The position numbers and the translations under genes are program-made. Under the pieces are notes generated by a model. The model saw only the letters and a program-made list of their open reading frames with translations, was not told the origin of the DNA and ran no database searches. Shown here piece after piece: positions 2,531-32,865 of a DNA stretch of 58,663 bases. Position 1 is the stretch's first letter; each line of letters starts with the position of its first letter. The stretch is from Patescibacteria group bacterium (GTDB taxonomy: Bacteria; Patescibacteriota; Minisyncoccia; Phycocordibacterales; Phycocordibacteraceae). Where the stretch lies: the NCBI GenBank assembly GCA_038062735.1, contig JBBTWN010000002.1, forward strand, positions 1 to 58,663, written 5' to 3'.

Positions 2531-4027
2531 ATGTCACTGTACTTTCTTTTTAATAACATCCACTTTGCCCTTGAACTCATGGGTGCCGTTGCATTTTTGA
2601 TGGCGGCGTGGCTAACGTTTGATACCTACACGCTACGAAAAGATGGCTCGGTACTCATGCGAAGTATTGGTTTTGGCTTCTTCGCTGTGTGGCAGGTGGT
2701 GTATGCCGTTACCGCAGGGAACGATATTCTCTCGTATATAGGCTCGGTCATACTCCTCATCGCACTCGCGCTTATTGCGGGGAGTTTCCTCAAGCATCAA
2801 GAGCTTCATGTACAGGCAGTTATTGTGCTTCCCGCCTTTTCGCTCTGGAGTGGTGTCATTCAGACTGCAGCTGCAATGTTCTTTTTTATTACCGCCTATC
2901 TGTCGTATCGTCGCTCAGTGCAAGAAATGAACGTCACCTGGAGACCGTTCTACCTCTCGTTTGCGTGTCTTGGACTCGCCGCGGTTCTCTCAGTTTTTGT
3001 TAAAGAAAATCAAATTGGCATCATTGCAACAGGACAATATCTTTTTCAGTTCGTCGGATTTGCACTCTTGGCGTGGTGGGTCTGGCAATATTTGCAGCTC
3101 AGGATCCGAGAAAGCTTAATACTCATCTTTATATCCGCTGCACTGTTCCTTTCGACGGTTGTGACGCTAGCGTTTTCTACGATTCTCATCAGTCAGATAA
3201 CTGAGCAAACACAGAGCAATCTATTGACCGATGCACGCGTTCTCGATCTCGCCATCAAGAGTCTTCAGGAAGAGTCGCTTGCCAAAGTAGAGATTATTTC
3301 ACTTGACACAGGTATACAAGAAGCGATTCAGGAGAACGACTTTGTTCGTCTCGATGAGGTTGCAGAGTCATTTATGGAGGAGTATCGTCTTGGATTTTTA
3401 ACTATTGCAGATAAAGATGGCAGTGTATTAGTACGCGCCCACGCGCTCTCAAGAAAGGGAGACTCATTAATAGGAGAACGTGCATTTGAAGAGGCAATCC
3501 AGGGTAAAACGTTTGTAACCATTGAAAATAGTATTGTTGAAAAGCTATCTATAAGGGCAGGCGCGCCGCTGGTACGGGATGGACAACCCATGGGCGTCGT
3601 CATTGCGGGGTATCAACTCGATAATGCACTCGTCGACCGTATGAAGCGTGTGACGGGGCTCGAGATGCTTATTTATAATAAGAATACTTCAGTCGCCGCA
3701 ACTGCACTCGCTGCGGACGGTCGCACGCGCGTAACGGGCGTTCCTGTTTCTAATAGTGAGGTCGAGCAGACCGTCTTAGTTGATGGCAAGAGCATGACCG
3801 CTGAGTCACGATTTTATGGTGCCCCGTATCAGTCAAGTTTTTTGCCGCTGGTGAATGGTGACAAGAAAATCGTTGGTATGATTTCAGCCGCGAAACCAGA
3901 ACAAGATATTCTTGACATTGCAAACGCCACCAATCGACTCACACTCATTACTATTATCATCATTATGCTTGCACTTGCATATCCTATTTACTTCCTCACC
4001 AGACGTTTGACCAGTGAGGGAGCATAG
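2531..4027 (+). CDS. Multi-pass membrane sensor module (about 7 TM helices + extracytoplasmic Cache/PDC-like domain + terminal TM) without any output domain
   Basis: Hydrophobic N-terminal half. It is followed by a ~270-aa soluble region with a Cache-like pattern (..FLTIADKDGSVLVRAH..GVVIAGYQLDN..IVGMISAAKP..) and a last TM (LTLITIIIIMLALAYPIYFL). The protein ends 10 aa after that TM. Confidence 0.55.
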   Translation: MSLYFLFNNIHFALELMGAVAFLMAAWLTFDTYTLRKDGSVLMRSIGFGFFAVWQVVYAVTAGNDILSYIGSVILLIALALIAGSFLKHQELHVQAVIVLPAFSLWSGVIQTAAAMFFFITAYLSYRRSVQEMNVTWRPFYLSFACLGLAAVLSVFVKENQIGIIATGQYLFQFVGFALLAWWVWQYLQLRIRESLILIFISAALFLSTVVTLAFSTILISQITEQTQSNLLTDARVLDLAIKSLQEESLAKVEIISLDTGIQEAIQENDFVRLDEVAESFMEEYRLGFLTIADKDGSVLVRAHALSRKGDSLIGERAFEEAIQGKTFVTIENSIVEKLSIRAGAPLVRDGQPMGVVIAGYQLDNALVDRMKRVTGLEMLIYNKNTSVAATALAADGRTRVTGVPVSNSEVEQTVLVDGKSMTAESRFYGAPYQSSFLPLVNGDKKIVGMISAAKPEQDILDIANATNRLTLITIIIIMLALAYPIYFLTRRLTSEGA

Positions 4028-4062
4028 GAGGATGATTCTGGTGCTACAATCCAAAGAGGAGC

Positions 4063-5271
4063 TTGAGTATGATTAAATACAGTATCGTCGCGTTCCTTCT
4101 CGTCGTTGTACTTGCAGCTGGAGGAGCGTACTACGTGTACATGCTCAATGGTGCATCTGCACCGGCCATACAAACAGGCTCAACTCCCGGTGTTACCGAT
4201 ACTGAAATACTCCTCGGGTCGTCCTCAGCTCTTTCAGGACCTGCAGCGAGCTTAGGTACCAACCTTATCTCAGGCGCAAATGTGGCGATTCGTGAGATTA
4301 ATGAAGCCGGAGGAGTGAATGGGAGAATACTCAAACTCGTTTCGTACGATGATCAGTATGACCCACCAAAAGCGGTAGAGAATACACAAAAGCTTATCAA
4401 CGAAGATAAGGTCTTTGTTCTTTTTAATTACGTCGGCACACCTACTGGTGTCAAAGTTATGCCTGTAGTCGCAGACGCCAAGGTTCCTCTGGTGGGGATG
4501 TTTACCGGTGCGGAGGCGTTTCGTAACCCATTACAGAGATATATTTTTAACATTCGAGGATCGTACTATCAGGAAACTGAGCTCGCCACGAGATATTTTG
4601 TTGACAATCTTGGATTGAAAAAAATTGCAGTGCTGTATCAGGCCGATGCGTTCGGCATTGCAGGATTTGAGGGGACAAAAATTGCTCTCGACAAGCGGGG
4701 ACTGAAACCTGTCGCCACGGGGACGTACGAGAGAAACACCGTGGATGTCGAAGAAGGAACGCGTGCGATTACGGCTTCTGACGCTCAAGCAGTTATTATG
4801 ATTGGGACATATTCGCCACTTGCCAAGTCTGTCGAGCTTATAAAAGGGGACAGGCCAGAAATGTTATTCCACACGGTTTCTTTTGTTGGGCCCGAGGCAT
4901 TCATACATGAGTTAAACGGAAAAACAGATAATGTCTTTGTGACTCAAGTCGTCCCCCCTACATACTATGGCGAGCTCTTTGATGCCGTTAAGAGATATAA
5001 CGACGGGCTCGCAAAATATTATCCCGACACTGAAGCTACGTTTGGCGGTCTTGAAGGATACGTCAATACAAAAATTCTGGCAGAGGGTATCCGTCTCGCA
5101 GGAACCGAACTTACCCGCGAGGGATTGGTGGGCGCACTCGAATCGCTGAAAAATTTTGATGTGGGTATCGGCGTCAACGTATCATTTAGTCCAACTAACC
5201 ACCAGGGTTTGGATAAGGTATACCTCACTGACTTTGATAAGGGTACCTTTGAGATTGTCCCTGTGAAGTAA
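4063..5271 (+). CDS. Type I periplasmic-binding-fold solute-binding protein (LivK / Peripla_BP_6-like, amino-acid-binding type), TM-anchored
   Basis: 'AIREINEAGGVNGRILKLVSYDDQYDPPKAVENTQKLINEDKVFVLFNYVGTPTG' is the characteristic LivJ/LivK-family N-lobe. N-terminal anchor IVAFLLVVVLAAGGAYYV. SD-like agaggag lies 8 nt upstream of the ATG. No ABC permease or ATPase gene nearby. Confidence 0.8.
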   Translation: MSMIKYSIVAFLLVVVLAAGGAYYVYMLNGASAPAIQTGSTPGVTDTEILLGSSSALSGPAASLGTNLISGANVAIREINEAGGVNGRILKLVSYDDQYDPPKAVENTQKLINEDKVFVLFNYVGTPTGVKVMPVVADAKVPLVGMFTGAEAFRNPLQRYIFNIRGSYYQETELATRYFVDNLGLKKIAVLYQADAFGIAGFEGTKIALDKRGLKPVATGTYERNTVDVEEGTRAITASDAQAVIMIGTYSPLAKSVELIKGDRPEMLFHTVSFVGPEAFIHELNGKTDNVFVTQVVPPTYYGELFDAVKRYNDGLAKYYPDTEATFGGLEGYVNTKILAEGIRLAGTELTREGLVGALESLKNFDVGIGVNVSFSPTNHQGLDKVYLTDFDKGTFEIVPVK

Positions 5272-5277
5272 TAATGC

Positions 5278-6159
5278 ATGGTCTGGGGACTCCGAACGAA
5301 GTTTTTTCTGGCTTTCGTGGGTCTCGTATTAGTGGCGTCAGCAATCAATTTGGTTGTTGCAGTTTCTGCTATTCAAAATAGTCTCACCGAAGATCTACTA
5401 CAAAGGCTGGTGGGTAACACAAAAGCACAAATAAATGACCTAACGAATTTCGTACTCATTGGTAATAAGGAGGGCCTCATCAACTCAATTTTTAACGAAA
5501 AGTCTTCTCGAAAAGATTTGGCCTACCAGCTGGTTTTAAATGAGAACAATCAGTTATTGGCGAGCACACTCGTTAATCAGGACCCTCAGCAGTTCGTTTC
5601 GTACAATGTTTTGCCAGACGGGGCCACAGAACACATTGAACTCGTGTCCTTGGACGATGGACAAACGGTATACGATATCGCGCTTCGACTAGATTACGAC
5701 AAAGGGATTGTTCGGGCTGGATATTTCAAAAATCAGATTGACGCGAGCGTTTTGAGTATCGTGTATCTTCTTATCCTCGGAGTCGTTGCTTCCATTGCGG
5801 TTGCACTCGCTGTTTCTTTTCTTTTCACTAAGAGTTTTTTCAAACCACTTGCTGAACTTAAGGTAGCGGTTGAAAAAGTATCAGCAGGAGATCTGTCAGT
5901 GCGAGCACGCGTAACCACCAACGACGAGCTTGGATACTTGGCGCTCGCATTTAATGCGATGGCATCTGAGATTCAAAAATCCTACCAACAGCTTGAGGGT
6001 AAGGTCGATGAAAGAACGTCCGAGCTCAATCTGAAACTTGATGAGCTCGGTAGACTCAACAGGCTTATGGTTGGTAGAGAGTTAAAGATGGTAGAATTAA
6101 AGCAACAGAACGCACATTTACTCGAACAGCTCACACTTAAAAATAATTATCATACATGA
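5278..6159 (+). CDS. TM - extracytoplasmic domain - TM - HAMP - coiled-coil transducer with no kinase/MCP/GGDEF output
   Basis: Two TM helices (FFLAFVGLVLVASAINLVVAV; VLSIVYLLILGVVASIAVALAVSFLF) flank ~130 aa. HAMP signature 'FKPLAELKVAVEKVSAGDLSVRARVTTNDELGYLALAFNAMASEI', then a heptad-rich tail. Confidence 0.65.
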   Translation: MVWGLRTKFFLAFVGLVLVASAINLVVAVSAIQNSLTEDLLQRLVGNTKAQINDLTNFVLIGNKEGLINSIFNEKSSRKDLAYQLVLNENNQLLASTLVNQDPQQFVSYNVLPDGATEHIELVSLDDGQTVYDIALRLDYDKGIVRAGYFKNQIDASVLSIVYLLILGVVASIAVALAVSFLFTKSFFKPLAELKVAVEKVSAGDLSVRARVTTNDELGYLALAFNAMASEIQKSYQQLEGKVDERTSELNLKLDELGRLNRLMVGRELKMVELKQQNAHLLEQLTLKNNYHT

Positions 6160-7298
6160 AAATCGAACAAAAAAAATGGACTCAAGAAGGTGGTTGGATA
6201 ACGACCTCAAAAGTGGCTCTCCCGAGCTCTCCCCAGCTCGTATTGGTATTTGGTGCAAGTGCACTCGTGAGTCAGGAGAGTGTGTTTAGTGAGGTGAAGG
6301 CGCAGTATCCATCGTCTCACATCATTATGATGTCGACCGCAGGGGAAATACTGGACACCTCAGTGTCGGACAACTCATTATCACTCTCTGCTCTCTATTT
6401 TGAGAAGACCACGCTTAATGTGAGACAAGTCGAGATTACCAATTCTGCAGAAACCAAGACTGTCGCAGAAGCTCTCGCGCACTCAATTCCAACAGAAAAG
6501 TTGGTGCACGTTATGGTATTTTCTGACGGTCTCAAGGTTAATGGCACAACACTTGTTGAAGGTATCACTTCGGTATTACCAAGGAGGGTGGGGCTCACCG
6601 GGGGGCTCGTTGGAGATGGGGCAGATTTTAAACATACCTACGTTGGACTCGATCAAGTAGCAACCGAAGGAAAGATAGTCGCCGTGGGTTTTTATGGTGA
6701 TGCACTTAAAGTGAGCTATGGGTCAATGGGAGGGTGGGATCCCTTTGGTCCCGAACGGACGATCACCAAAGCGAAAGACAATGTGCTCTATGAGCTTGAT
6801 GGGAAACCAGCACTTGAAATTTATAAGGAATATCTTGGCGATAAGGCCAAAGAGCTCCCTGGATCGGGCCTACTCTTTCCACTTTCTCTAAGCCTTCCAG
6901 GCACGGACGGTGTGTCACAAGTTGTTCGGACTATTCTTGCGGTCAACGAGACTGATCACAGCATGACCTTTGCAGGCACAATGCCCGAAGGTGTGAAAGC
7001 GCAGCTTATGAAGGCAAATTTTGAACGACTCGTCGGTGGAGCGTCTAGTGCAGCCAGTATGATTAAAGAGTTCAACGCGCGGGCAGAGCTCGCCATCCTC
7101 ATTAGCTGCGTTGGAAGAAAATTGGTACTCAAGGAGAGAATTGAAGAAGAAACAGAGGCGATACGAGAGGTATTTGGTCCTGACACGGTGCTCGCTGGCT
7201 TTTATTCATATGGCGAGATATCGCCCGGATCGCCCACCGCAAGCCAGTGCGAGCTCCACAATCAGACAATGACTATCACCACATTTGAAGAAAGGTGA
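6156..7298 (+). CDS. FIST-domain sensory protein (FIST_N + FIST_C)
   Basis: The C-terminal block 'AELAILISCVGRKLVL...VLAGFYSYGEISP....CELHNQTMTITTF' is the typical FIST_C signature. The N-terminal half has 'PQLVLVFGA...MMSTAGEIL'. ATGA overlap with the HAMP gene. Confidence 0.8.
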   Translation: MKIEQKKWTQEGGWITTSKVALPSSPQLVLVFGASALVSQESVFSEVKAQYPSSHIIMMSTAGEILDTSVSDNSLSLSALYFEKTTLNVRQVEITNSAETKTVAEALAHSIPTEKLVHVMVFSDGLKVNGTTLVEGITSVLPRRVGLTGGLVGDGADFKHTYVGLDQVATEGKIVAVGFYGDALKVSYGSMGGWDPFGPERTITKAKDNVLYELDGKPALEIYKEYLGDKAKELPGSGLLFPLSLSLPGTDGVSQVVRTILAVNETDHSMTFAGTMPEGVKAQLMKANFERLVGGASSAASMIKEFNARAELAILISCVGRKLVLKERIEEETEAIREVFGPDTVLAGFYSYGEISPGSPTASQCELHNQTMTITTFEER

Positions 7299-19616: not shown

Positions 19617-20132
19617 ATGAATACAACAAGCATTATCGCGGTTATCGCGCTGTTCGTTATTATTGGTGGTGGTATTTATTACAACACGATGACCCCAGCC
19701 TCAGAGGTCATGATGGAAAAGGGGGGCGCCATGATGGACGAGGGCGAAAAGATGATGGAGAAGGGAGACGACATGGTGGACGAGGGCGAAATGATGAAGA
19801 AAGAGGGTGAGGCGATGATGTCAGTCGGGAGTTATGAGGCGTATGCACCAGAGAAACTTGCAAAAGCTACAGAAGGCGACGTGGTACTCTTCTTTCGTGC
19901 TTCGTGGTGTCCGACGTGTCGTGCACTTGATACTGACATACGAGCACACCTCAAGGATATCCCCGCAGGAGTCACTATTCTTGATGTAGACTATGATACT
20001 TCGACAGAGCTCAAGAAGAAGTACGGCGTTACCTATCAGCACACGTTCGTGCAGGTCGATGCAGAGGGAAATCAGATTACCAAATGGTCGGGCTCTCCGA
20101 CTCTCGCTTCCTTTCTGGCGAACATTAAATAA
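19617..20132 (+). CDS. Membrane-anchored thioredoxin-family protein (WCPTC) with a Met/Glu-rich heptad-like linker
   Basis: Anchor IIAVIALFVIIGGGIYY. Linker 'MMEKGGA MMDEGEK MMEKGDD MVDEGE MMKKEGEA MM'. Thioredoxin core 'VVLFFRASWCPTCRALD...GVTYQHTFVQVD'. Confidence 0.75.
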   Translation: MNTTSIIAVIALFVIIGGGIYYNTMTPASEVMMEKGGAMMDEGEKMMEKGDDMVDEGEMMKKEGEAMMSVGSYEAYAPEKLAKATEGDVVLFFRASWCPTCRALDTDIRAHLKDIPAGVTILDVDYDTSTELKKKYGVTYQHTFVQVDAEGNQITKWSGSPTLASFLANIK

Positions 20133-23816: not shown

Positions 23817-24184
23817 AAAAAGTACATGGCTCATCAGAGACTTCGACTGCGCCGCTCTCTGCGGCGGTAGAAGCAAATGGTTTAGTCTTTGTGTCAGGCC
23901 AGATACACGCAGACAAAGAGTGGAATCTAGTAGGTACAACCATTGAAGATCGATTTACGGCTGCGATGGCTAGCATCGAACGCATTCTCGCCGAGGCTGG
24001 TTTGTCGCGAGGGGATATAGTCCACGTTCGTCTTTACCTGACTGATCTGTCAGAGCTCCCAGCTTTGAACGACGTATACAAAGCCAGTTTTACCCACCCG
24101 CTCCCAGCGCGCACCGCCGTCGGCGTCGCCCGCCTCCCCTTGGGCGCGAGCTTAGAGATTGAAGTAACCGCCGCCCGCCCATGA
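23813..24184 (+). CDS. RidA/YjgF/TdcF-family (endoribonuclease L-PSP fold) protein
   Basis: 'AVEANGLVFVSGQI........IVHVRLYLTDL.....N.VY...F....PARTAVGVARLPLGASLEIEV' is the typical RidA layout. ATGA overlaps on both sides. Confidence 0.8.
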   Translation: MKKVHGSSETSTAPLSAAVEANGLVFVSGQIHADKEWNLVGTTIEDRFTAAMASIERILAEAGLSRGDIVHVRLYLTDLSELPALNDVYKASFTHPLPARTAVGVARLPLGASLEIEVTAARP

Positions 24185-24600
24185 TCCGCGGTTACACCGA
24201 CGTCGACTATGATCAGGTGAAAGCTCTGTACGAGCAGACGCAGCTGTTCGGCGGGCAGTTTGATGAAAATCGTGACTCCCGCGATAGACTCCGCGTACAG
24301 AGTACGGCTGACGCAGAATCCATTCTTGTCTCAGAAGTCGACAACAAAATCGTCGGCACCATTTCTCTAATTGTCGATCAGCGTGTCGCATGGCTCTTTC
24401 GCTTCGCAGTCGTTCAGGGCGAGCATGAGGCAGAAGTCACTAAAGAGCTCTATGACAGAGCGGTCACAACCCTAAAGGCTCGCGGGCATAACCAAGTTCT
24501 CGTCTATTCGCCAGTAGAGGACCCGCCCCTCGACGCTCGCTACGCCACCCTCGGTTTTTCCAAAGGCACCGATTTTACATGTTTTTGGAGAGATATTTAG
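24181..24600 (+). CDS. GNAT-like N-acetyltransferase (divergent)
   Basis: Size and pattern fit ('IVGTISLIVDQRVAWLFRFAV...ELYDRAVTTLKARGHNQVLVY...YATLGF'), but the Q/RxxGxG/A acetyl-CoA loop is not canonical. Confidence 0.5.
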   Translation: MIRGYTDVDYDQVKALYEQTQLFGGQFDENRDSRDRLRVQSTADAESILVSEVDNKIVGTISLIVDQRVAWLFRFAVVQGEHEAEVTKELYDRAVTTLKARGHNQVLVYSPVEDPPLDARYATLGFSKGTDFTCFWRDI

Positions 24601-24712
24601 TCTCCTAGTTTTTATTTTTAGAAGGAGTAGAATGAGTTCGTACTCGTCATAAACAAGACTTACTGTGGCCTGGACCCGTTTGGACCTTTAAGAAGAGATC
24701 AATCGCACTGCT

Positions 24713-25993
24713 ATGGAAAATGAGATTAAAAAAATTTCCGATTCGCCAGTCTATTTTTTGGGATTGTGCGAAAGGTTTAATGAGCCAACCATAGGAAATG
24801 TTGGCGAGCATAAAATCAAAAGAACTGACTTAATTGGGCTTAGATTTATTTTTCTTTCCTCGATCTTTCCATTTTCTTCAGAGAGCTTTTATCTCACTTT
24901 TTTGCTTGACAACCATTTTGTATCAGACGGGGGCAGTCTCACATTAAAAGTTAGACATCGCGATAGCGGTGAAGAGGTGGGTAGTATTTCGATTACGGCT
25001 CATGTACTAGGTGCAGGAAATAGGCTTGCGTCGCGCTTCACCCTTGGCGCAGCAAAAATTCCTGGGAATTATCCTTTGCCGGGAAGCTACGAAGTCTTTT
25101 TAAAATCCAGTGATAGTGAGGTTGTAGTTGGTGGGTTTGATTTGATTCATATACCCGCACTCCCCCTAACTCCAGAAAGAGTGAAAGCACTCAAGTCAGA
25201 TCCCACAGCAGCAAAATACATTCGTTTCGAACTCACCTGCAATGATTGTCATGATTCAATAAAAGCATGGGTTGGGATAAATGGTAAGGAAGATAACAAG
25301 AATGAGGATGGGTATATTTGGTATGAGGATCTTCCGGAAGACTTCGTTTGTTCTTGCGGGAGGATAAAAAGGAGTTTAAAATATCTCAGAGAAAATCTAC
25401 ACGGGATTCTAGGGCATAAACCATCCCCATTTTCTTCCGAAGAAGAGATCGAAAGAAATTATACAAGTGCAGCATTAAAAACTACGCTTCGTGACTTTGA
25501 GGAGGTAATTGAGCATTCGAAAACCGAGGAGGAGATTCAAAAATTTATTGAACTGCATCCAATAGTGTTAGCGTGCTTTTCGCCAGAATTTCTCAAATTT
25601 AAAGCTCCCGCTACTGCTAAATTTAAAACTGATTTTGCACTTCTAAATCAAAAGGGCGAGCTGGTTTTGATTGAGATCGAGAAAGCGAATACCCCGCTCT
25701 TCACCAAGATGGGCACACAGCACTCAAAACTCACTCAAGCAATTGGTCAGGTAGAGGACTGGCTTAAAGAGGCAAGGAGAAACAAACTTGGCGTTATCGA
25801 TGATTTAGGTATTAATGGGGTGAGCATCGACATGGTGACAGCCGTCAAGGGAGTGGTTATCGCAGGTAGATCCTTGAAAAAATATGACACACACATTGAA
25901 AAACTTCATGCGCGCCAAGATATCAGCTTCTTTACTTTTGACGACCTTTTAAAGTCTTTGAGGAATATCGTTTTAAGAGTTGAAGAAATATAG
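24713..25993 (+). CDS. Shedu-like protein: unrecognised N-terminal region + C-terminal DUF4263 / PD-(D/E)xK nuclease domain
   Basis: C-terminal blocks: 'EEEIQKFIELHPIVLACF', 'KTDFALLNQKGELVLIEIEKANTPLF', 'LTQAIGQVEDWL', 'VVIAGRS', 'ISFFTFDDLL'. A four-Cys cluster CNDC...CSCG sits at about residues 177-216. The gene is visibly AT-richer than its flanks. Confidence 0.6.
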   Translation: MENEIKKISDSPVYFLGLCERFNEPTIGNVGEHKIKRTDLIGLRFIFLSSIFPFSSESFYLTFLLDNHFVSDGGSLTLKVRHRDSGEEVGSISITAHVLGAGNRLASRFTLGAAKIPGNYPLPGSYEVFLKSSDSEVVVGGFDLIHIPALPLTPERVKALKSDPTAAKYIRFELTCNDCHDSIKAWVGINGKEDNKNEDGYIWYEDLPEDFVCSCGRIKRSLKYLRENLHGILGHKPSPFSSEEEIERNYTSAALKTTLRDFEEVIEHSKTEEEIQKFIELHPIVLACFSPEFLKFKAPATAKFKTDFALLNQKGELVLIEIEKANTPLFTKMGTQHSKLTQAIGQVEDWLKEARRNKLGVIDDLGINGVSIDMVTAVKGVVIAGRSLKKYDTHIEKLHARQDISFFTFDDLLKSLRNIVLRVEEI

Positions 25994-26084
25994 TCGTTCA
26001 AAGTAAATCAAATCACCGTGTCGAATGGTAAGCTCAAAACTTGTGACTATCTAACCTGGAAAATTTTAAGATTAAGTAGGCAGA

Positions 26085-26501
26085 TTATTTAGGTTCTAGA
26101 TCACTGTCATTTATCTCGTTGAGTATTTTTTCGAGAGTTTGGTTGTCTCGATAGTAGACATTTATTGACTCTTCAAATAGCCGGTCGATAGCAAAAATCG
26201 AAGTTACAAGTAGGCCAACCACAACTAGGGGATAGATCACTTCATAGCCCTTGAACCAGTCATGAACAATATTTACAAGGAGCCCAATGAGTAGGGCGAT
26301 AACAGCTGCAAGAAAAAAGAGACCAAACTCGAAAGAGCGATTACGCATAGCGCTGACAATAGCCGGAAAGGTGGTGGGCGAATTGTTAAGTGATTTGTTG
26401 GACCAAGCGACCACTTGATCTTGCACTTCAGGAGTGAGATCTATCCACTGCTGTCCATATACTCTTTTAAGTCTCTTTTTTAGTTCGTCGTTATCAGTCA
26501 T
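26085..26501 (-). CDS. Two-TM membrane protein of unknown function, convergent with the Shedu-like gene
   Basis: 'FEFGLFFLAAVIALLIGLLVNIV' and 'IYPLVVVGLLVTSIFAI' helices. Start taken at MTDNDELKK (26501), which has a TAGTGT -10 box 7 nt upstream on the minus strand. The track start 26537 is also possible. Confidence 0.5.
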   Translation of the reverse strand: MTDNDELKKRLKRVYGQQWIDLTPEVQDQVVAWSNKSLNNSPTTFPAIVSAMRNRSFEFGLFFLAAVIALLIGLLVNIVHDWFKGYEVIYPLVVVGLLVTSIFAIDRLFEESINVYYRDNQTLEKILNEINDSDLEPK

Positions 26502-26508
26502 ATACGCC

Positions 26509-26514
26509 ACACTA
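26509..26514 (-). promoter_or_regulatory. -10 box TAGTGT (minus strand) 7 nt upstream of ATG 26501
   Basis: The reverse complement reads tagtgt-ggcgtat-ATG. Confidence 0.4.
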
Positions 26515-26621
26515 CTCCTGCGTGGCAGATAAATCAAATAGCGGCGGTGGGATCGTTAAAGGAATCGAGATCTTAAATAACTATTTTGTGAGGGCTGGAG
26601 TATGGTGTAGGTGGGACTTGC

Positions 26622-26627
26622 TATAAT
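26622..26627 (+). promoter_or_regulatory. -10 box TATAAT (TGc-extended) 6 nt upstream of ATG 26634
   Basis: tgctataat-tacaat-ATG read directly. Confidence 0.55.
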
Positions 26628-26633
26628 TACAAT

Positions 26634-27170
26634 ATGAAAAAAGGTTTGGTATGGGTGGGGGTTGGAGTTGTGGTGGTGGCGCTTGGAGTGGCGGCGGCGT
26701 TGTATGCTGAGCAGCATCCTGCTGGGCCGCTCACGGGGTATACGAGGGATTCAAACTATGAATATACGCTCGGCGTAGCGACAGGCATTGCAGGTTCGTC
26801 ATACACCATCCCCGCAGCTTTAGCTGAAGGTACAAACTTGAGTACGGACACCTATATAAGCTACGAGGAGCTGCCGAGCCCAGTCACATGCGATCCGACT
26901 GAGTTTCTAGATGGTGAGCCGGAGGTGACAGGGGTTGTCGATGGCGGCACCATGTATCTTGTCGCACACTCGGTGGGTGCGGGGGCCGGGAATAGGTATG
27001 AGGAGACAGTTTATGTGTTTAAAGACTATACGCCATGCACCGCTATCCGCTACTTCATCCACTATGGCGTTATCGAGAACTATCCAGAAGGAACAGTCAC
27101 AGAGTTCGACCACGCGACGCTCGTCGCACAGTTTGACGACATCCGTCGCCTCCTCGCCCGTAGCCGCTAA
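26634..27170 (+). CDS. Membrane-anchored extracytoplasmic protein of unknown function
   Basis: Anchor 'LVWVGVGVVVVALGVAAALY' followed by a 150-aa soluble domain. I recognise no family. Confidence 0.5.
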   Translation: MKKGLVWVGVGVVVVALGVAAALYAEQHPAGPLTGYTRDSNYEYTLGVATGIAGSSYTIPAALAEGTNLSTDTYISYEELPSPVTCDPTEFLDGEPEVTGVVDGGTMYLVAHSVGAGAGNRYEETVYVFKDYTPCTAIRYFIHYGVIENYPEGTVTEFDHATLVAQFDDIRRLLARSR

Positions 27171-27207
27171 TTTCCTTATAGGCTAATTCGCCCGAATATG
27201 TCCTATA
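27171..27207 (+). repeat. Palindromic intergenic box, copy A (core TTATAGGCTAATTCGCCCGAATATGTCCTATA at 27176-27207)
   Basis: Starts 1 nt after the stop at 27170. Identical over 37 nt to copy B. Inverted arms TATAGG/CCTATA and ATTCG/CGAAT around a CC centre. Confidence 0.9.
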
Positions 27208-27301
27208 TGCAGAAAATCGCAGGCTCGATTCGCGTCCAGACGTCCAGAATGGTTGGTATAATTACAGAAAGGAGGAATTAACTCCTAAATAACTATTTTA
27301 T

Positions 27302-27685
27302 ATGGACGTAACAATGTTTTTGGCGCAAATTTGGGGTCCGATTATGCTCGCCGTCGGCCTTGGTATTTTTTCAAGTCGTAAGCACTATGTGCACGTGTAC
27401 AAAGATTTAGATAAAGAGACGTTTGCAGTATTCACGTTCGCCATGATGGCGATCACGATTGGTATACTCCACATCAATATTCACAATGTCTGGAATACCT
27501 TGCCGCAGATAGTGGTGAGTATCCTCGGTTGGGGACTTTTGGTTAAGGGTGCAATGTTTGCTATCGCCCCGCACTATGCTGACAAGTGGGGTAACTGGGC
27601 AGCAGACTCAAAGTTCATCTCTATCGTCGGCGCAGCACTCTTGGTCATCGGCCTCTACCTCTCGTGGCTCGGCTACCTTGGCTAA
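27302..27685 (+). CDS. Four-TM membrane protein of unknown function
   Basis: Helices IWGPIMLAVGLGIFS, FAVFTFAMMAITIGILHI, IVVSILGWGLLVKGAMFAI, IVGAALLVIGLYLSWLGY. Upstream there is an extended -10 tggtataat and an AGGAGG that lies in a small hairpin (aggag-gaattaa-ctcct). Confidence 0.55.
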   Translation: MDVTMFLAQIWGPIMLAVGLGIFSSRKHYVHVYKDLDKETFAVFTFAMMAITIGILHINIHNVWNTLPQIVVSILGWGLLVKGAMFAIAPHYADKWGNWAADSKFISIVGAALLVIGLYLSWLGYLG

Positions 27686-27688
27686 ACA

Positions 27689-27985
27689 ATGTTTGAGGAC
27701 CACATCGCGTACCTAAAAGATAATCCAAAAGGATACTGGTTCAAGGCGCGTCTGTACGGCTGGGGTTGGGTGCCGGTTAGGTGGCAGGGCTGGGCGGTTA
27801 TTGGTGCATACGTTGTGCTTATGATTCTGCTCGGGCTCACCATCGACGAGGCATCGCCGCCGCGCGAGATCGCGTTCACTTTTTTCATCCCCGCAGCTAT
27901 TTTGACTGCGCTCCTCCTTCGCATCTGCTACAAAAAAGGCGAGCGACCCCACTGGCAGTGGGGCCCACCCAAATCCAAAAAATAA
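27689..27985 (+). CDS. Small two-TM membrane protein of unknown function
   Basis: 'YWFKARLYGWGWVPVRWQGWAVIGAYVVLMILLGL' and 'IAFTFFIPAAILTALLLRI'. Starts 3 nt after the previous stop. Confidence 0.5.
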   Translation: MFEDHIAYLKDNPKGYWFKARLYGWGWVPVRWQGWAVIGAYVVLMILLGLTIDEASPPREIAFTFFIPAAILTALLLRICYKKGERPHWQWGPPKSKK

Positions 27986-27996
27986 TCGCGCCCCAC

Positions 27997-28033
27997 TTTC
28001 CTTATAGGCTAATTCGCCCGAATATGTCCTATA
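27997..28033 (+). repeat. Palindromic intergenic box, copy B (core 28002-28033)
   Basis: Begins 12 nt after the stop at 27985. The 37 nt tttccttataggctaattcgcccgaatatgtcctata are identical to copy A. Confidence 0.9.
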
Positions 28034-28067
28034 GTCGGCGGACGCTTTTCTCGTATAAGCTGGAAGA

Positions 28068-28466
28068 GTGTTTACATTTATTGTCAGACGCAGAAAGGTA
28101 CGCCGGCGGCGCAAGGTGAGTGTAGCCAAGCGCAAGCACTATGTGTTGAATAAAGAAGTTGCGCGACGCGCTATTGTTGCACGCGTCGCCGAGCTTAATC
28201 AGCACTACAACTTTACGCATGGACGGATTTCAATACGTTCTCAGCGTTCGCGCTGGGGCAGCTGCTCTAAGAAGGGGAACTTGAATTTTAATTATATGAT
28301 CGCATCTCTTCCGCCCGCACTCATGGACTATGTGATTGTGCACGAGATGTGCCACCTTTCCGTCTTTAATCACTCACCATCCTTTTGGGCTAGGGTCGCG
28401 GAGCTCGTTTCAAACCACCGCGCGCTCCGTGCATCGCTGCGCACCCACGGCCACCTCATCCGCTAA
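28068..28466 (+). CDS. DUF45 / YgjP-like (M48-related) zinc metallopeptidase, short form lacking the usual N-terminal half
   Basis: 'RISIRSQRSRWGSCSKKGNLNFNYMIASLPPALMDYVIVHEMCHLSVFNHSPSFW' shows the WGSC and HExxH hallmarks of DUF45. GTG start. Basic N-terminus RRRKVRRRRKV. Confidence 0.75.
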   Translation: MFTFIVRRRKVRRRRKVSVAKRKHYVLNKEVARRAIVARVAELNQHYNFTHGRISIRSQRSRWGSCSKKGNLNFNYMIASLPPALMDYVIVHEMCHLSVFNHSPSFWARVAELVSNHRALRASLRTHGHLIR

Positions 28467-28476
28467 TCCACCCTAC

Positions 28477-28511
28477 TCCTTGTAGGCTAATTCGCCCGAA
28501 CATGTCCTGTA
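28477..28511 (+). repeat. Palindromic intergenic box, copy C (variant; core 28480-28511)
   Basis: TTGTAGGCTAATTCGCCCGAACATGTCCTGTA has three substitutions relative to A/B/D. It lies 10 nt after the stop at 28466 and directly upstream of, and in frame with, the ArsR ORF. Confidence 0.85.
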
Positions 28512-28549
28512 TGGTGGCAAAGTGTCGACCGCTGTGGTTAGATGTGGTC

Positions 28550-28819
28550 ATGGCAAAAGACAAGGATATCGAGCGAGTGTTAAAAGCTTTGGCGAATAAA
28601 AGGAGATTAATGATTGTCCGACTCCTCAAAAAGCATAAAATGATGAACGTGGGGGATATTGCCACAGAAATAAATCTTTCATTCCGCGCGACATCGCGAC
28701 ACCTCGGCGTCCTTCTTTCAGCGGGCATTTTGGAACGCGAGCAGCAAAGTCTTAACATGTTTTACCGCATACACGCGGGGCTACCTGAGATAGCTGGACG
28801 AATAATCTCCGCTCTTTAA
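28550..28819 (+). CDS. ArsR/SmtB-family winged-helix transcriptional regulator
   Basis: 'VLKALANKRRLMIVRLLKKHKMMNVGDIATEINLSFRATSRHLGVLLSAGILEREQQSLNMFYRI' is the canonical ArsR HTH_5/HTH_20 pattern. I see no obvious metal-site Cys (alpha3 CxC) or alpha5 His/Asp cluster. Start ATG 28550 preferred; the track's ATG 28502 lies inside box C. Confidence 0.75.
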   Translation: MAKDKDIERVLKALANKRRLMIVRLLKKHKMMNVGDIATEINLSFRATSRHLGVLLSAGILEREQQSLNMFYRIHAGLPEIAGRIISAL

Positions 28820-28821
28820 TT

Positions 28822-28855
28822 TGTTATAGGCTAATTCGCCCGAATATGTCCTATA
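28822..28855 (+). repeat. Palindromic intergenic box, copy D (core 28824-28855)
   Basis: Begins 3 nt after the ArsR stop at 28819. The core is identical to copies A and B. Confidence 0.9.
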
Positions 28856-29089
28856 GTGTGGGTTCATCCATATTTCACCCTGCATTGGGTATGGTTAAGG
28901 GCCTTAACAGTCGTTAACCAAACCCACCATGCATGCAAAAAAAGACAAAGATCATAGCAAAGAAGGCAATGATCAAGGTAGCAAAGGTGATTCGCCAGTT
29001 CAAAGTCCGTATCCTGACGAGCGGGAGGAAAGCTGGGCCGCGTGAAGAGCGTGAGGTCGGCGTGTAATGAATAATGAGCGTCGCTGTAG

Positions 29090-29095
29090 TATGAT
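29090..29095 (+). promoter_or_regulatory. -10 box TATGAT 6 nt upstream of ATG 29102
   Basis: gtagtatgat-ggtggc-ATG read directly. Confidence 0.45.
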
Positions 29096-29101
29096 GGTGG
29101 C

Positions 29102-29548
29102 ATGATAAAAAATCTCATCATTGCAGTCGTTGGACTCCTGATACTCGGCGGTGTGTTTGTCTATATTGTGCCCATGCTCGACGATGAGTCAGCACAGGTC
29201 GCGTGCACACAAGAGGCGATGCTCTGTCTTGATGGAAGTTATGTCGGCCGCACTGGCCCAAGCTGCGAGTTTGCTGCGTGCCCTGCGCTACCGCCTGCCG
29301 TCTATTCGTGCGACAACGACAAATCTGTCACCGTGACCTTTGCAAGTGAAACTGCAATGGTAGAACTTTCTGACGGCCGCACAATGTTGCTAACACTCAA
29401 AGAAGCCGCCTCAGGTGCAAAGTATACAAACTCTGATGAGTCATTCGTCTTTTGGACGCAGGACTATGGTGCCTTTATAGAAGAAAATGGTGTCACCACT
29501 TTCGCTGCGTGCCACATAGATGACCTCACATTTCCAGAAGTGAACTAG
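29102..29548 (+). CDS. Membrane-anchored protein with a Cys-rich mini-domain and an MliC-like (C-type lysozyme inhibitor) domain
   Basis: 'VYSCDNDKSVTVTFASETAMVELSDGRTMLLTLKEAASGAKYTNSDESFVFWTQDYGAFIEENG' fits the MliC pattern (Y.C....v.v.f...a.l.......L....SGakY......fw.kg..a). It is preceded by 'CTQEAMLCLDGSYVGRTGPSCEFAACP'. Confidence 0.55.
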   Translation: MIKNLIIAVVGLLILGGVFVYIVPMLDDESAQVACTQEAMLCLDGSYVGRTGPSCEFAACPALPPAVYSCDNDKSVTVTFASETAMVELSDGRTMLLTLKEAASGAKYTNSDESFVFWTQDYGAFIEENGVTTFAACHIDDLTFPEVN

Positions 29549-29556
29549 GAGTTGTT

Positions 29557-29585
29557 TTGACTAAGAGATAATTTTGTGTTATTGT
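29557..29585 (+). promoter_or_regulatory. Sigma-70-type promoter TTGACT-N17-TATTGT, 7 nt upstream of GTG 29593
   Basis: ttgact-aagagataattttgtgt-tattgt-ttcaagc-GTG read directly. Confidence 0.55.
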
Positions 29586-29592
29586 TTCAAGC

Positions 29593-30138
29593 GTGGAAAA
29601 ACGTCTTTCTCCTCATGCGCATCGAGAATCTGACATACACGAACATGTACAGCGCCTCGCGTTAGATGCGCTACATGACACTGTCGAAACATCCTCGACA
29701 TCTGTAGTGATGGCGACCAATAGAAAGCCGCACATTTTGACGCGCAAAAATATGATGCGCCCGATTATGTCTGACCCGCGTCGTCGCACCAAAGAAATGC
29801 TTTTGTACGAGCTCTTAGGTATCCGCGCCTTTAAAATTCTGTGGGAACTCTGGATGCGCGGTACGACATGGATCTTCAGGCAGGACAAAACCAAAATAAA
29901 ATTCTTACGTCGTGATGCGGACGAAAATTATCCCTATGCCATGTTCAGCTACATGGCCTTCATAATTCATTTTTTTAGCTTTGCAGGTATTGCAGTAATA
30001 ACCCCGTTTATGGGGCCGTGGTTCTGGCCTATGTTTGCTTTGAACATCCTTATGAATGTCTATCCGTGCATGCTCCAGCGCTACAACTGGCTGCGCCTCA
30101 AGCGTGCAAAGTTGAATCCGGATCTCTCAATAAGTTAG
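29593..30138 (+). CDS. Membrane protein with a CrtO-like (glycosyl-4,4'-diaponeurosporenoate acyltransferase family) C-terminal region
   Basis: 'FIIHFFSFAGIAVITPFMGPWFWPMFALNILMNVYPCMLQRYNWLRLKR' resembles the 'N.P.I.VQRYNRPRL' end of staphylococcal CrtO, as far as I recall that sequence. Confidence 0.4.
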   Translation: MEKRLSPHAHRESDIHEHVQRLALDALHDTVETSSTSVVMATNRKPHILTRKNMMRPIMSDPRRRTKEMLLYELLGIRAFKILWELWMRGTTWIFRQDKTKIKFLRRDADENYPYAMFSYMAFIIHFFSFAGIAVITPFMGPWFWPMFALNILMNVYPCMLQRYNWLRLKRAKLNPDLSIS

Positions 30139-30141
30139 TGC

Positions 30142-30147
30142 TAGTGT
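30142..30147 (+). promoter_or_regulatory. -10 box TAGTGT (TGc-extended) 6 nt upstream of ATG 30154
   Basis: tgctagtgt-gagcgt-ATG read directly. Confidence 0.5.
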
Positions 30148-30153
30148 GAGCGT

Positions 30154-31413
30154 ATGAGAGATGCAGATTTGTACGATGTGGCCGTTTTGGGCGGTGGAGC
30201 GTCGGGCATGTTTGCAGCTTGTATTGCTGCATCACGCGGTGCACGCGTGGTCGTCATCGATAAAAATAAGTCGCTCGGCGAGAAGCTCGCGATCACCGGT
30301 GGAGGCCGCTGTAATATCACGAACGCCGAGTATGACATCCATGCACTCCTAAAAAACTATGGCGCTGACGCCAAGTTTTTATATTCCCCCTTCTCGCAGT
30401 TTGGCGTTGAGGACACGTTTAAGTACTTTTCTGCGCGCGGGCTGCCACTCGTTATAGAGGCGAGAGGCCGCGCCTTTCCCGAGACACAAAAAGCGACCGA
30501 TGTAGTCAAAGTATTAGAAAAAGAACTTAAAAAACACAAAGTCAGCGTTGTTCGAGCCACTGTTAAACGAATTGTCAGTGATAGCGGTTTCATCGAGCGA
30601 GTTGAAACGACTGGCGGAGACATCCGTGCGCGTGCCTATATCCTCGCGACGGGTGGCGCGTCACACAAGGAGACCGGCTCCACCGGCGATGGCTTTACAT
30701 TTTTGAAAAGCATCGGACACACGGTGAAAGATCCAACACCGACCATCGTGCCACTTTCTGTCCGCGACCGGTGGATTAAGATACTCGCTGGCGTGTCGCT
30801 TAAGAAAGTCTCGATAACCTTTTTTCTCGACGACAAAAAACAGTTTTCAAAAACGGGGGATATGTTGTGTACTCACTTTGGCTTGTCTGGCCCTACGATA
30901 TTAAATAGTGCAAGCGCGGTGAGTCATTTATTAGAAGGCGGTGGCGCGGTGACGGCACGCATCGATGCGCACCCTACGCTTGACCTCGGCGCGCTTGAAA
31001 AGAAGGTGATCGCCGTCTTTGATGCAAACAAAAACAAAACGCTAAAGACGGTATTTAAAGAATTGTGTCCGGTGGGGAGCGCAAAAGGCGTCCAGACACT
31101 GCTCACGAACATTAATTTTGAAACAAAAGTGCACAGCGTGAGCAAGGATGACAGAAAAAAGATAGTGCGGCTGTTAAAAGCGCTCCCCGTTTCAATCCTT
31201 GGGCTCATGGGCTATGATCGCGCAGTCGTTGCAGATGGCGGCGTGCCCCTTTCTGAGATTGATACACGCACGATGCGCTCTTTGAAGTACGATAATTTAT
31301 TTGTGACAGGCGACTTGCTCCACATTAACCGGCCGTCCGGCGGCTACTCGCTCCAACTCTGTTGGACGACGGGGTTTGTGGCCGGCACTGCCGCGTCACT
31401 TATCAAGGCGTAG
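30154..31413 (+). CDS. HI0933/BaiN-like NAD(P)/FAD-dependent oxidoreductase
   Basis: 'YDVAVLGGGASGMFAA' dinucleotide-binding motif, 'ITGGGRCNITN', 'ILATGG.S...TGSTGDGF', and C-terminal 'LFVTGDLLHINRPSGGYSLQLCWTTG'. Confidence 0.85.
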   Translation: MRDADLYDVAVLGGGASGMFAACIAASRGARVVVIDKNKSLGEKLAITGGGRCNITNAEYDIHALLKNYGADAKFLYSPFSQFGVEDTFKYFSARGLPLVIEARGRAFPETQKATDVVKVLEKELKKHKVSVVRATVKRIVSDSGFIERVETTGGDIRARAYILATGGASHKETGSTGDGFTFLKSIGHTVKDPTPTIVPLSVRDRWIKILAGVSLKKVSITFFLDDKKQFSKTGDMLCTHFGLSGPTILNSASAVSHLLEGGGAVTARIDAHPTLDLGALEKKVIAVFDANKNKTLKTVFKELCPVGSAKGVQTLLTNINFETKVHSVSKDDRKKIVRLLKALPVSILGLMGYDRAVVADGGVPLSEIDTRTMRSLKYDNLFVTGDLLHINRPSGGYSLQLCWTTGFVAGTAASLIKA

Positions 31414-32865
31414 CTCTTCATCGATTCTAATTTGGCTCACAAACTCGGGCACGTGTGAGACGAGTACCATCGCGCCTTCATATTGATCGAGCGCACGTGC
31501 AATAACCGGTAGATGGCGAAAGTTAATATGGTTTGTTGGCTCGTCGAGAATTAAAAGTCCAGGTTTTTGAAGTACGAGACGCGCAAACGCGACCAGACCT
31601 TTTTGGCCTTCAGACAAACTGCCGACCGTGGCGCGGAGCATGTCGGAGGTGATCAAAAAGCCCGCCGCGACTGAGCGGAGGTTCTCTTCAATCTGGCGCT
31701 CCATGACCGACATGAGGGACTCGTGTACGGTGTCGTTAAAATTTAAGGTTGAAAAGTCCTGTCGGTAGTAGCCGACGGTGATGCCGGGCGCTATAGTGGC
31801 ACCGTCTGCCGTGCCATTCGCAAGGGATTCAAGGAGGGTAGTCTTTCCTATGCCGTTGGGGCCAGAGAGGAGGAGATGCATCCTCTTTTTGAGGATGATA
31901 TTGGTTTTGTGTGACACCACTTTGTGCGTTTTTGGATTCATGATGGAGTAGGCGGTCAGCGTCAGTATCTCGCCCAGGGTGTCGCCCGCAGGGATAATAA
32001 ACGAGCGAATGGTTTTATCCTCTTTTCGCACATCCACTTTTTGCTCAGCCAGCTCTTCTGCATATTCCCGCATGCGCTTGGCCACGACGCGCATCTGTCC
32101 GCCCTTTTGTGCAAAGACATTCGCCTGTGCTTTCTTGGCGTCTATTTCTTTGGCCAAGCGCGCGTTCTTTATATTTTCTTTTTCGATGCGCGCGGCGATT
32201 TCTGCCTGCACATCGGTGTAGGTGCCCACGTACTGCTCGATGGTGCGAGTGAATATGTCGAGGTACAAGACGCCCTGGGTGAACGCGTTTAAAAATTCTG
32301 CATCATGCGAGATCACGATACAGGTTTTTTTATATTCGACGAGAAACTTCGTGAGGTGTTCGATGCCCGCATGATCTAGATTGTTCGTCGGCTCATCCAA
32401 CAAAAGGATGTCAGGGTTTTGTATGAGTGCGGATGCGAGAAGGAGCCGCGCTTGCTGGCCGCCAGAGAGTGTTTTTATTTTGCGATCGTAGATTGGTGTA
32501 TGTGAGTGGACGTGGAGATTCACCGCTTCAAGTACGGTGTCTATGCGCGGATCGATGTCATATATTTTTTTAGAAAAGCACGCTTGAAAAAACTCGCGCA
32601 CCGTCATGTCCATCTCTGCACGCGGGATAACTTGGCGCGCGGTCGCGATCGTTGATCCGCGATCGATGTGAATTTTTCCCGCGTCAGGCTTTAAGGTGCC
32701 AGTGATGAGTCCAAAAAGAGTGGATTTGCCCGCGCCATTTTGTCCCATGAGTGCGATTTTTGCTCCACGCCGTACGGGAAAGCTCACCTCGCGCACAATC
32801 GGGTGTGTGTAGCTATATTCAAACGAGACACCCTCGAATCGGATAATCACTTCTTGTTTACTCAC
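31396..32865 (-). CDS. ABC-F family ATPase (two ABC cassettes, no TM domain)
   Basis: Walker A 'GQNGAGKST' and 'GPNGIGKTT', signatures 'LSGGQQARL' and 'LSEGQKGLV', Walker B 'LLLDEPTNNLD' and 'LILDEPTNHIN'. GTG start. Its 3' end overlaps the convergent flavoprotein gene by 18 nt. Confidence 0.85.
   Translation of the reverse strand: MSKQEVIIRFEGVSFEYSYTHPIVREVSFPVRRGAKIALMGQNGAGKSTLFGLITGTLKPDAGKIHIDRGSTIATARQVIPRAEMDMTVREFFQACFSKKIYDIDPRIDTVLEAVNLHVHSHTPIYDRKIKTLSGGQQARLLLASALIQNPDILLLDEPTNNLDHAGIEHLTKFLVEYKKTCIVISHDAEFLNAFTQGVLYLDIFTRTIEQYVGTYTDVQAEIAARIEKENIKNARLAKEIDAKKAQANVFAQKGGQMRVVAKRMREYAEELAEQKVDVRKEDKTIRSFIIPAGDTLGEILTLTAYSIMNPKTHKVVSHKTNIILKKRMHLLLSGPNGIGKTTLLESLANGTADGATIAPGITVGYYRQDFSTLNFNDTVHESLMSVMERQIEENLRSVAAGFLITSDMLRATVGSLSEGQKGLVAFARLVLQKPGLLILDEPTNHINFRHLPVIARALDQYEGAMVLVSHVPEFVSQIRIDEELRLDK

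Follow-up and report, generated by a model that had tools for sequence, protein, structure and literature searches.

Palindromic boxes around an ArsR-like gene of Patescibacteria as probable binding sites of the encoded winged-helix protein

In REPtrons, a RAYT transposase gene is flanked by short palindromic repeats, and such repeats (REPINs) occur in tens to hundreds of copies per genome, often just past stop codons; the attC sites of integrons have an R''/L''-L'/R' structure with GTTRRRY, are 57-141 nt long and are served by the integrase IntI. To our knowledge, almost nothing is known about gene regulation in Patescibacteria (candidate phyla radiation), which cannot be grown alone. Previous studies showed that the SmtB/ArsR repressors SmtB, ZiaR, AztR and AzuR bind 12-2-12 imperfect inverted repeats, one or two per control region (PMC8790569), and that Vibrio HlyU binds inverted repeats ATATTAG/CTAATAT around a palindromic spacer, overlapping a cruciform-forming locus at exsBA (PMC10325908). 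Here, we analyzed a stretch of 58,663 nucleotides from a Patescibacteria contig (JBBTWN010000002.1; the whole stretch is called the window below), in which four copies of a 32-nt palindromic box lie between small genes, one of them encoding an 89-amino-acid ArsR/HlyU-like protein (28550-28819). We put the probability that the box is the cognate duplex-DNA binding site of this protein at about 75%.

The box TTATAGGCTAATTCGCCCGAATATGTCCTATA is present exactly at 27176-27207 (box A), 28002-28033 (box B) and 28824-28855 (box D), and a fourth copy at 28480-28511 (box C) carries three substitutions, all transitions; all four read in the + direction, and the identity between boxes A and B extends to 37 nt (27171-27207 and 27997-28033). 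No box match was obtained in 100 shuffles of the sequence, and no additional copy was present in the 58.7-kb window, even by the family matrix described below. The box is an imperfect inverted repeat, TATAGGCTAATTCG-CC-CGAATATGTCCTATA, with outer arms TATAGG/CCTATA, inner arms ATTCG/CGAAT and a CC centre; with arms of about 12 and a 2-bp centre it has the 12-2-12 layout. These copies, their coordinates, the 37-nt identity and the anatomy had been given in a preliminary description of the window, and exact and three-mismatch matching bore them out. The same description placed every copy 1-12 nt after a stop codon; the stop-proximal position held, and the figure agrees only roughly with the 37-nt frame, the 32-nt boxes beginning 4-16 nt past the stop codons of + strand open reading frames (ORFs). 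These stops end at 27170, 27985, 28466 and 28819, and the distance from a box to the following plausible start is 34-246 nt. Box A begins 5 nt past the stop of the ORF at 26634-27170, box B (whose right end reads TATAGT, a -10-like hexamer) 16 nt past that of the ORF at 27689-27985, and box D 4 nt past the ArsR-like stop, as the downstream site of the regulator; box C, its upstream site, is centred 54 nt before the ArsR-like start codon.

The association of site and gene was seen when homologous loci were compared. The first lead was locus L004, in which an ArsR homologue (50% identity) is bracketed on both sides by the perfect palindrome TATACCCCTAATTCGCACGAATTAGGGGTAT, which has the core CTAATTCG-NN-CGAAT in common with the window box; the upstream palindrome of L004 runs into TATAAT 7 nt before the ATG. 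Eighty loci encoding family members were taken with 3 kb on either side. By a strict dyad criterion (a TTC(G/T)-NN-(C/A)GAA-centred palindrome at most 250 nt from the gene), a site was present in 54/82 loci, and on both sides of the gene in 30. A family weight matrix was built from 87 sites of these strict-criterion loci, with no window sequence included, and all 27 loci that had failed the strict criterion, which were outside the matrix training, had a site by the gene (14.8-49.7 bits), 26 of them on both sides. Over all ArsR loci the matrix gave an upstream site in 79 of 81, a downstream site in 76 and both in 74, mostly oriented with the gene, and all 80 homologue loci have family-type sites adjoining the ArsR-like gene. 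At the same threshold, only 5 matches were found in 1.16 Mb of other Patescibacteria loci, and the site density in ArsR loci was 85 per 68 kb within 300 nt of the gene versus 15 per 394 kb farther off. The proposal in the preliminary description, an ArsR-type inverted-repeat operator with autoregulation, is thus strongly supported by the presence of the core and its 2-bp centre at essentially all 80 related loci and by the upstream sites lying on the promoter.

In the reverse direction, a scan for CCCTAATTCGNNCGAATTAGGG over 185,579 species genomes, for which about one chance match was expected, returned 51 sites in 48 stretches, all metagenome-assembled genomes (MAGs) of Patescibacteria; 15 of the 51 sites adjoin an ArsR-like gene (11 distinct genes), and the remaining neighbours are diverse. 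Sites of the exact type number 1-6 per genome (4 in the 831-kb contig JAIELV01). Pattern scan and family matrix together carried out the search of related genomes that had been proposed earlier; with only 1-6 copies per genome, the box does not make up a family of repetitive extragenic palindromes (REPs). These comparisons show that the site accompanies the gene across Patescibacteria, that its upstream copy falls on the promoter, and that there are few copies.

The window boxes can be assigned to this family of ArsR-adjacent sites on the basis of their sequence and position. Across the 58.7 kb the family matrix ranked boxes D, A, B and C as matches 1-4 (18.0, 17.8, 17.1 and 6.8 bits), with the next window match at 1.7 and the best of 20 shuffles at 8.9; boxes A, B and D scored above every shuffle and box C was inside the shuffle range. 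They are weak members (family median 43), with a typical left arm, TTCCTTATAGGCTAATTCG (cf. TTCCTTATACCCCTAATTCG), and an irregular right arm. Moreover, an 18-mer identical to the window box, CTAATTCGCCCGAATATG, is located directly past the ArsR stop of L125, and boxes C and D are at the usual upstream and downstream positions of the family (centres at -54 and +20). The exact box 26-mer had no match in the species-representative genomes. Relatives found via the neighbouring HI0933-like gene were all Paceibacteria/Parcubacteria-type Patescibacteria MAGs, the closest at 90% and about 70% protein identity, and no window box was present in the 80 syntenic loci obtained in this way (L002-L081), even with up to 10 mismatches.

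The presumed reader of the box, encoded at 28550..28819 (+), has 89 amino acids and no cysteine. It belongs to the ArsR/SmtB winged-helix family (Pfam HTH_5, 33.2 bits, cut-off 22; NCBIfam NF033788, 66.9 bits, cut-off 55), and its profile relatives in the PDB were HlyU (3jth, E 7.7e-13, the closest), Lmo1102, NolR, PagR, BigR, CzrA, CadC and SmtB. We found 265 homologues (E < 1e-5), nearly all of 86-92 amino acids and from Patescibacteria. In the family alignment A1 the recognition helix LSFKATSKHL was almost invariant, the sole invariant His was located in this helix, and no conserved ligand set of a metal or metalloid sensing site (alpha3/alpha3N Cys or alpha5 Asp/His/His/Glu) was present. 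Because the protein has no cysteines and the family no conserved metal ligands, a non-metal ArsR member like HlyU, PagR or NolR is more likely than an arsenic or metal sensor. The AlphaFold2 model had a pLDDT of 78 and was confident only in the helix-turn-helix part (85-94, against 56-59 in the C-terminal 30 residues, which were not modelled as a wing), and Foldseek with this model returned only generic winged-helix matches (E at least 0.07). No description of this protein family or its site was found in our literature searches, no operon partner of the ArsR-like gene was conserved across the family loci, where the neighbours are diverse, and inspection by eye across loci revealed no clear pattern between arm type and recognition-helix residues.

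Within the 87 family sites, the inner ATTCG/CGAAT was invariant, and an outer ATTC/GAAT-like pair was located 8 nt beyond the inner core on either side. About the 2-bp centre 83.7% of dyad cells were paired versus 37-46% with a slid register, the former percentage being inflated because only sites with 11 or more of 16 positions paired had been selected beforehand. Both sides change in 13 of the 18 dyad pairs (222 cells versus 84.6 +/- 9.1 in shuffles). A sequence-specific reader is required because the core is invariant in the 87 sites while the arms co-vary and the recognition helix is nearly invariant. The dyad of about 32 bp would consist of four half-sites, the invariant inner ATTCG-NN-CGAAT and an outer ATTC/GAAT-like or TATAGG/CCTATA pair, so that probably two dimers bind.

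The position of the sites relative to the gene was also characteristic. Upstream of the gene, the centres of the sites group at -20, at -31 to -34 and at -40 to -56, and the sites abut or overlap a TGnTATAAT or TAGAAT element located 6-7 nt ahead of the ATG, a promoter of the leaderless type; this placement is the classical arrangement for autorepression. In 21 loci the downstream site has its centre 5 nt past the stop, and CTAATTCG itself supplies the stop codon TAA; in 10 loci the centre falls 8 nt before the gene end, and the palindrome encodes the protein tail SNSLE. Among L082-L161, site and ArsR gene end are thus fused in two subfamilies, the SNSLE type and the stop-in-CTAATTCG type (e.g. 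L108, L143, L159; L095, L130). In the window, 28806..28823 (+) may be the decayed left arm of an older site over the stop codon (CTCCGCTCTTTAATTTG versus the family ATTCTCTAATTCG), by analogy with the 21 loci that have a site centred 5 nt past the stop. The spacing of upstream and downstream sites showed no helical phasing as a test of looping (Rayleigh p 0.5-0.9), and the 2-nt centres of upstream and downstream copies followed no rule of relative orientation (about 7/11 flipped).

The family gene thus normally has a site on either side, the first immediately upstream and the second at or directly after the stop; in the window these would be boxes C and D, with boxes A and B as two further copies upstream of the bracketed gene. 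We propose that the ArsR-like protein binds the box, and that binding at box C, whose centre is 54 nt from the ATG and which precedes a weak -10 element, would repress the leaderless promoter of its own gene; box C probably mediates autorepression. This element, TGgTTAGAT at 28535..28543 (+), lies 6 nt before the ATG at 28550 and is tentatively taken as the leaderless-type promoter of the ArsR-like gene; its hexamer is weak (3 of 6), and its spacing to the ATG matches the TGnTATAAT + 6-7 nt + ATG of the homologous loci. The preliminary description had pointed to an ATG inside box C (28502) that is in frame with the ArsR ORF; it is in frame, and as a gene start it fails, since by the family alignment translation begins at 28550. 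Boxes A, B and D, each close behind a stop, are probably protein-dependent roadblocks or insulators, at which binding would act against read-through between small gene units and not as at a classical promoter operator.

As with the SmtB/ArsR operators, the window system pairs a small winged-helix protein from that sequence family with an imperfect inverted repeat (2-bp centre, arms of at least 12), with one or two repeats per control region and (here in relatives) a site at the regulator's own promoter. It differs in that the window protein has neither metal ligands nor cysteine, the half-site ATTCG-NN-CGAAT has a polarity opposite to TGAACA-NN-TGTTCA, the site extends further, to about 32 bp with four ATTC/GAAT elements, and there is a near-universal second site at the gene 3' end, with extra copies past the stops of other genes. 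HlyU, the closest solved relative by sequence (3jth), is likewise a non-metal ArsR-family member, and the window box has relatives that are long, perfectly palindromic and capable of extrusion; however, HlyU is an activator or anti-silencer at AT-rich virulence loci for which no gene-bracketing is reported, and the window boxes are poor hairpin formers.

The regulator-site pair is readable straight from the sequence in about 80 species-level genomes, with about 5 false matches of the matrix per Mb, and would be a first pair of this kind and a first testable regulon for Patescibacteria. Three of its features are outside the textbook ArsR picture, namely the near-universal site at the gene's stop (encoding the last residues in some lineages), the other stop-proximal copies and the near-identical copies at unrelated loci, and these may reflect protein-dependent gene insulation in very compact genomes.

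The same features weigh against a simple operator, which leaves the near-universal 3' site, the post-stop position and the near-identity at unrelated loci unexplained, and several further observations weigh with them. No recognisable promoter lies at box A, B or D. Sites are nearer the upstream stop than the downstream start in 13/18 co-directional cases and in 4/4 cases in the window, about 1/5 of sites lie between convergent genes, and the downstream site is no less frequent ahead of a convergent gene (10/16) than ahead of a co-directional one (24/47), where the counts of co-directional and convergent genes are approximate, the ORFs of the related loci having been called by a crude longest-ORF heuristic. 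The downstream site belongs to the ArsR gene and not to a downstream promoter, because it is present with both kinds of next gene; away from ArsR genes, too, sites tend to be closer to the stop before them than to the start after them, and some are flanked by convergent genes. None of this (promoter-less boxes, stop-proximity, convergent sites, an orientation-independent 3' site) is expected of a plain promoter operator. In addition, unrelated loci carry copies that agree fully across 30-49 nt and are better conserved than the adjacent gene, which looks like copying rather than independent site evolution, and sites within one genome (L089, L004) differ in their arms yet are each symmetric, which the specificity of a protein alone does not explain. 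The half-site polarity TTC..GAA is opposite to that of the SmtB consensus, to which the box core shows no similarity, and box C, the presumed autoregulatory copy, is the weakest matrix match. Finally, the pairing of box and protein is drawn wholly from their co-occurrence.

Could the boxes instead form RNA or single-stranded DNA hairpins behind stop codons, working as terminators, 3'-end stabilisers or REP-like elements without any part played by the ArsR-like protein? The position 4-16 nt past stops, the strong compensatory variation at dyad positions, the sites between convergent genes and the long perfect palindromes of family relatives, which fold strongly as single strands (z -6 to -10), would all suit such hairpins. 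The window copies, however, fold weakly (RNA z -0.2 to -1.2, DNA z -1.1), and for box C no stable fold was obtained. Yet four metagenome contigs with nothing else in common with the window conserve the imperfect box sequence at 91-100%, and in one of them the copy is inverted relative to the flanking genes. Because the window boxes fold poorly while their imperfect sequence is conserved in these unrelated contigs, recognition of duplex DNA by a protein is favoured over a hairpin. Nor would a hairpin need an invariant ATTCG/CGAAT core or a tie to one protein family, and the dyad mismatches of the family are mostly non-wobble (36 and 34 GT/TG versus 101 and 112 others), with no G-U wobble bias. 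The preliminary description had offered the hairpin as its alternative, arguing from G-T pairs in the variant copy; that argument rests on two transitions and has little weight, and for the window copies the alternative itself is not supported, in view of the weak fold, the unfolded variant, the non-wobble mismatches and the inverted copy. An intrinsic (Rho-independent) terminator was rejected, there being a weak fold and neither a T-run nor a terminator call at any box, and Rfam at a permissive threshold gave two chance-level matches in 24000-32000 (E about 9), neither at a box. We therefore regard the hairpin explanation as very unlikely; in the relatives, by analogy with HlyU, a cruciform may possibly contribute (PMC10325908).

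Another explanation is that the boxes mark the edges of units that are mobile or become shuffled, at which small gene cassettes, among them the ArsR-like gene, would be moved or copied, with the ArsR-like protein as the element's own DNA-binding factor, in parallel to integron attC arrays or REP elements flanking a RAYT gene. L083 and L084 are 88.7% identical only over the upstream site and gene (2948-3291), with unrelated flanks; L085 has a site-ArsR-site unit separating purE from purM, two genes that in L004 and L005 overlap (ATGA); the DUF45 gene with its trailing palindrome stands at a different place in L003, the nearest usable relative, where the gene content between the p178 homologue and the HI0933-like gene is wholly different from that of the window; and identical 30-49-nt boxes in unrelated contexts and non-conserved ArsR neighbours point the same way. 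The L083/L084 and L085 cases, the identical boxes and the differing symmetric arms within one genome suggest occasional copying or movement of sites and of the gene they bracket. As in integron arrays, small same-strand ORFs are each trailed closely by a near-identical imperfect palindrome, and their content varies between relatives; as in REPtrons, one gene is flanked by short palindromes, with further intergenic copies often just past stops, and the copies are homogenised inside each genome but different from one genome to another. On the other hand, Pfam annotation gave no recombinase, integrase or transposase within about 10 kb, no target-site duplications were found, each genome has 1-6 copies, synteny across the gene is complete in several pairs of related genomes, L004 and L005 retain orthologous sites at matching intergenic positions, and an 89-amino-acid winged-helix protein has no catalytic domain. 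Integron attC cassettes were rejected, the box being only 32-37 nt (shorter than any attC), with no RYYYAAC/GTTRRRY pair of R''/R' core sites and no nearby integrase, and several window units having promoter-like elements of their own. A REPtron with a RAYT (HUH/Y1) transposase was rejected since the flanked gene is an ArsR-like winged helix, and in addition the flanking copies are mostly direct and not inverted, and the GTAG head is missing in 3/4 window copies. A REP/REPIN family was also rejected because the copy number is low, 1-6 per genome and not tens to hundreds, with the four window copies all in one cluster. Mobile units are thus an unlikely explanation of the boxes. A further and rather unlikely possibility is a self-contained, domesticated repeat system peculiar to Patescibacteria, made up of the ArsR-like protein and its palindromes, in which the gene would always be bracketed, extra sites would be copied to the 3' ends of other genes, and bound protein or an extruded cruciform would serve as a conditional terminator or insulator, REPtron-like around a winged-helix protein and not a transposase. 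That some other protein binds the boxes, the link to the ArsR-like gene being incidental or indirect, appears extremely unlikely: the support for ArsR binding is comparative and some genomes (L004, L089) carry two arm types, but the association is seen in 79-81 of 81 loci at fixed positions at gene start and stop despite changing neighbours, and the reverse enrichment from site to gene is strong. Binding by the ArsR-like protein is the reading we prefer.

The array around the boxes comprises two small hydrophobic proteins, a YgjP/DUF45-like metallopeptidase, the ArsR-family protein, a 38-codon ORF and an MliC-like protein. The unit between boxes A and B (27302..27985, +) contains the two hydrophobic ORFs, 27302-27685 and 27689-27985, neither of which had a Pfam or NCBIfam match. 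The unit between boxes B and C (28068..28466, +) encodes a short-form YgjP/DUF45-like metallopeptidase with HEMCH (Pfam PF01863, E 5e-32, profile positions 101-207). Its homologue in L003, also trailed by a palindrome, has 136 amino acids, 67% identity and the same length; because it is equally long, the window protein is probably a conserved short form and not a fresh truncation. The earlier gene labels DUF45, ArsR (HTH_5, NF033788) and MliC were right, except for the word truncated that had been applied to DUF45.

Extended -10 elements were observed in the window at 26619-26636, 27254-27262 and 29090-29104 (TGcTATAAT, TGgTATAAT, TATGAT), two of the three exactly 6 nt upstream of an ATG, and this spacing suggests leaderless mRNAs; most ArsR homologues in other genomes are preceded by the same architecture. 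Consensus scans of the window for sigma-70 promoters and terminators gave counts not above shuffles, with none at the boxes. In the leader at 27263-27301 of the 127-amino-acid membrane-protein gene, AAAGGAGGAATTAACTCCT forms a small hairpin that could sequester the Shine-Dalgarno-like sequence of that gene. Past box D, 28850-28935 (+) has a stable RNA fold (-31.2 kcal/mol, z -3.8; no Rfam match) that pairs the ATG at 28930 of the 38-codon ORF (28930-29046).

When the related genomes were inspected, orthologous family sites were observed at the same two intergenic positions of the syntenic genomes L004 (5931-5960, 16500-16533) and L005 (603-630, 10103-10134), before a DUF1993 gene and after a purQ-like gene, with arms that differ by changes on both dyad sides. 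L003 has a different 47-nt repeat with the palindrome CTTTGATATATCAAAG at 2375-2421 and 3466-3512, 15-18 nt past the stops of two successive genes. A different regulator may have its site there, and the repeat illustrates that stop-proximal repeated palindromes are common in these genomes. Variant palindromes with the same outer arms (TTCCTTAT...) and the core GTTCTTGAGAAC or GTTCTTAAGAAC are located at 557-600 and 9476-9511 of L003 and at 7032-7073 and 7335-7366 of L042, one of them trailing the DUF45 homologue, and may be read by a paralogous protein. Elsewhere, L162 contains at 3047-5704 an ORF of 885 amino acids for a DnaB-like replicative helicase with an apparent intein-type insertion. 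In the window itself, 24713-25993 (+), about 1.2 kb upstream of the box array, encodes a 426-amino-acid protein with a Shedu SduA_C nuclease domain (Pfam E 5.7e-20), an anti-phage defence gene, and a 21-nt tandem repeat of about five units at 19710-19814, inside a thioredoxin-like ORF, encodes a Met/Gly/acidic heptapeptide repeat.

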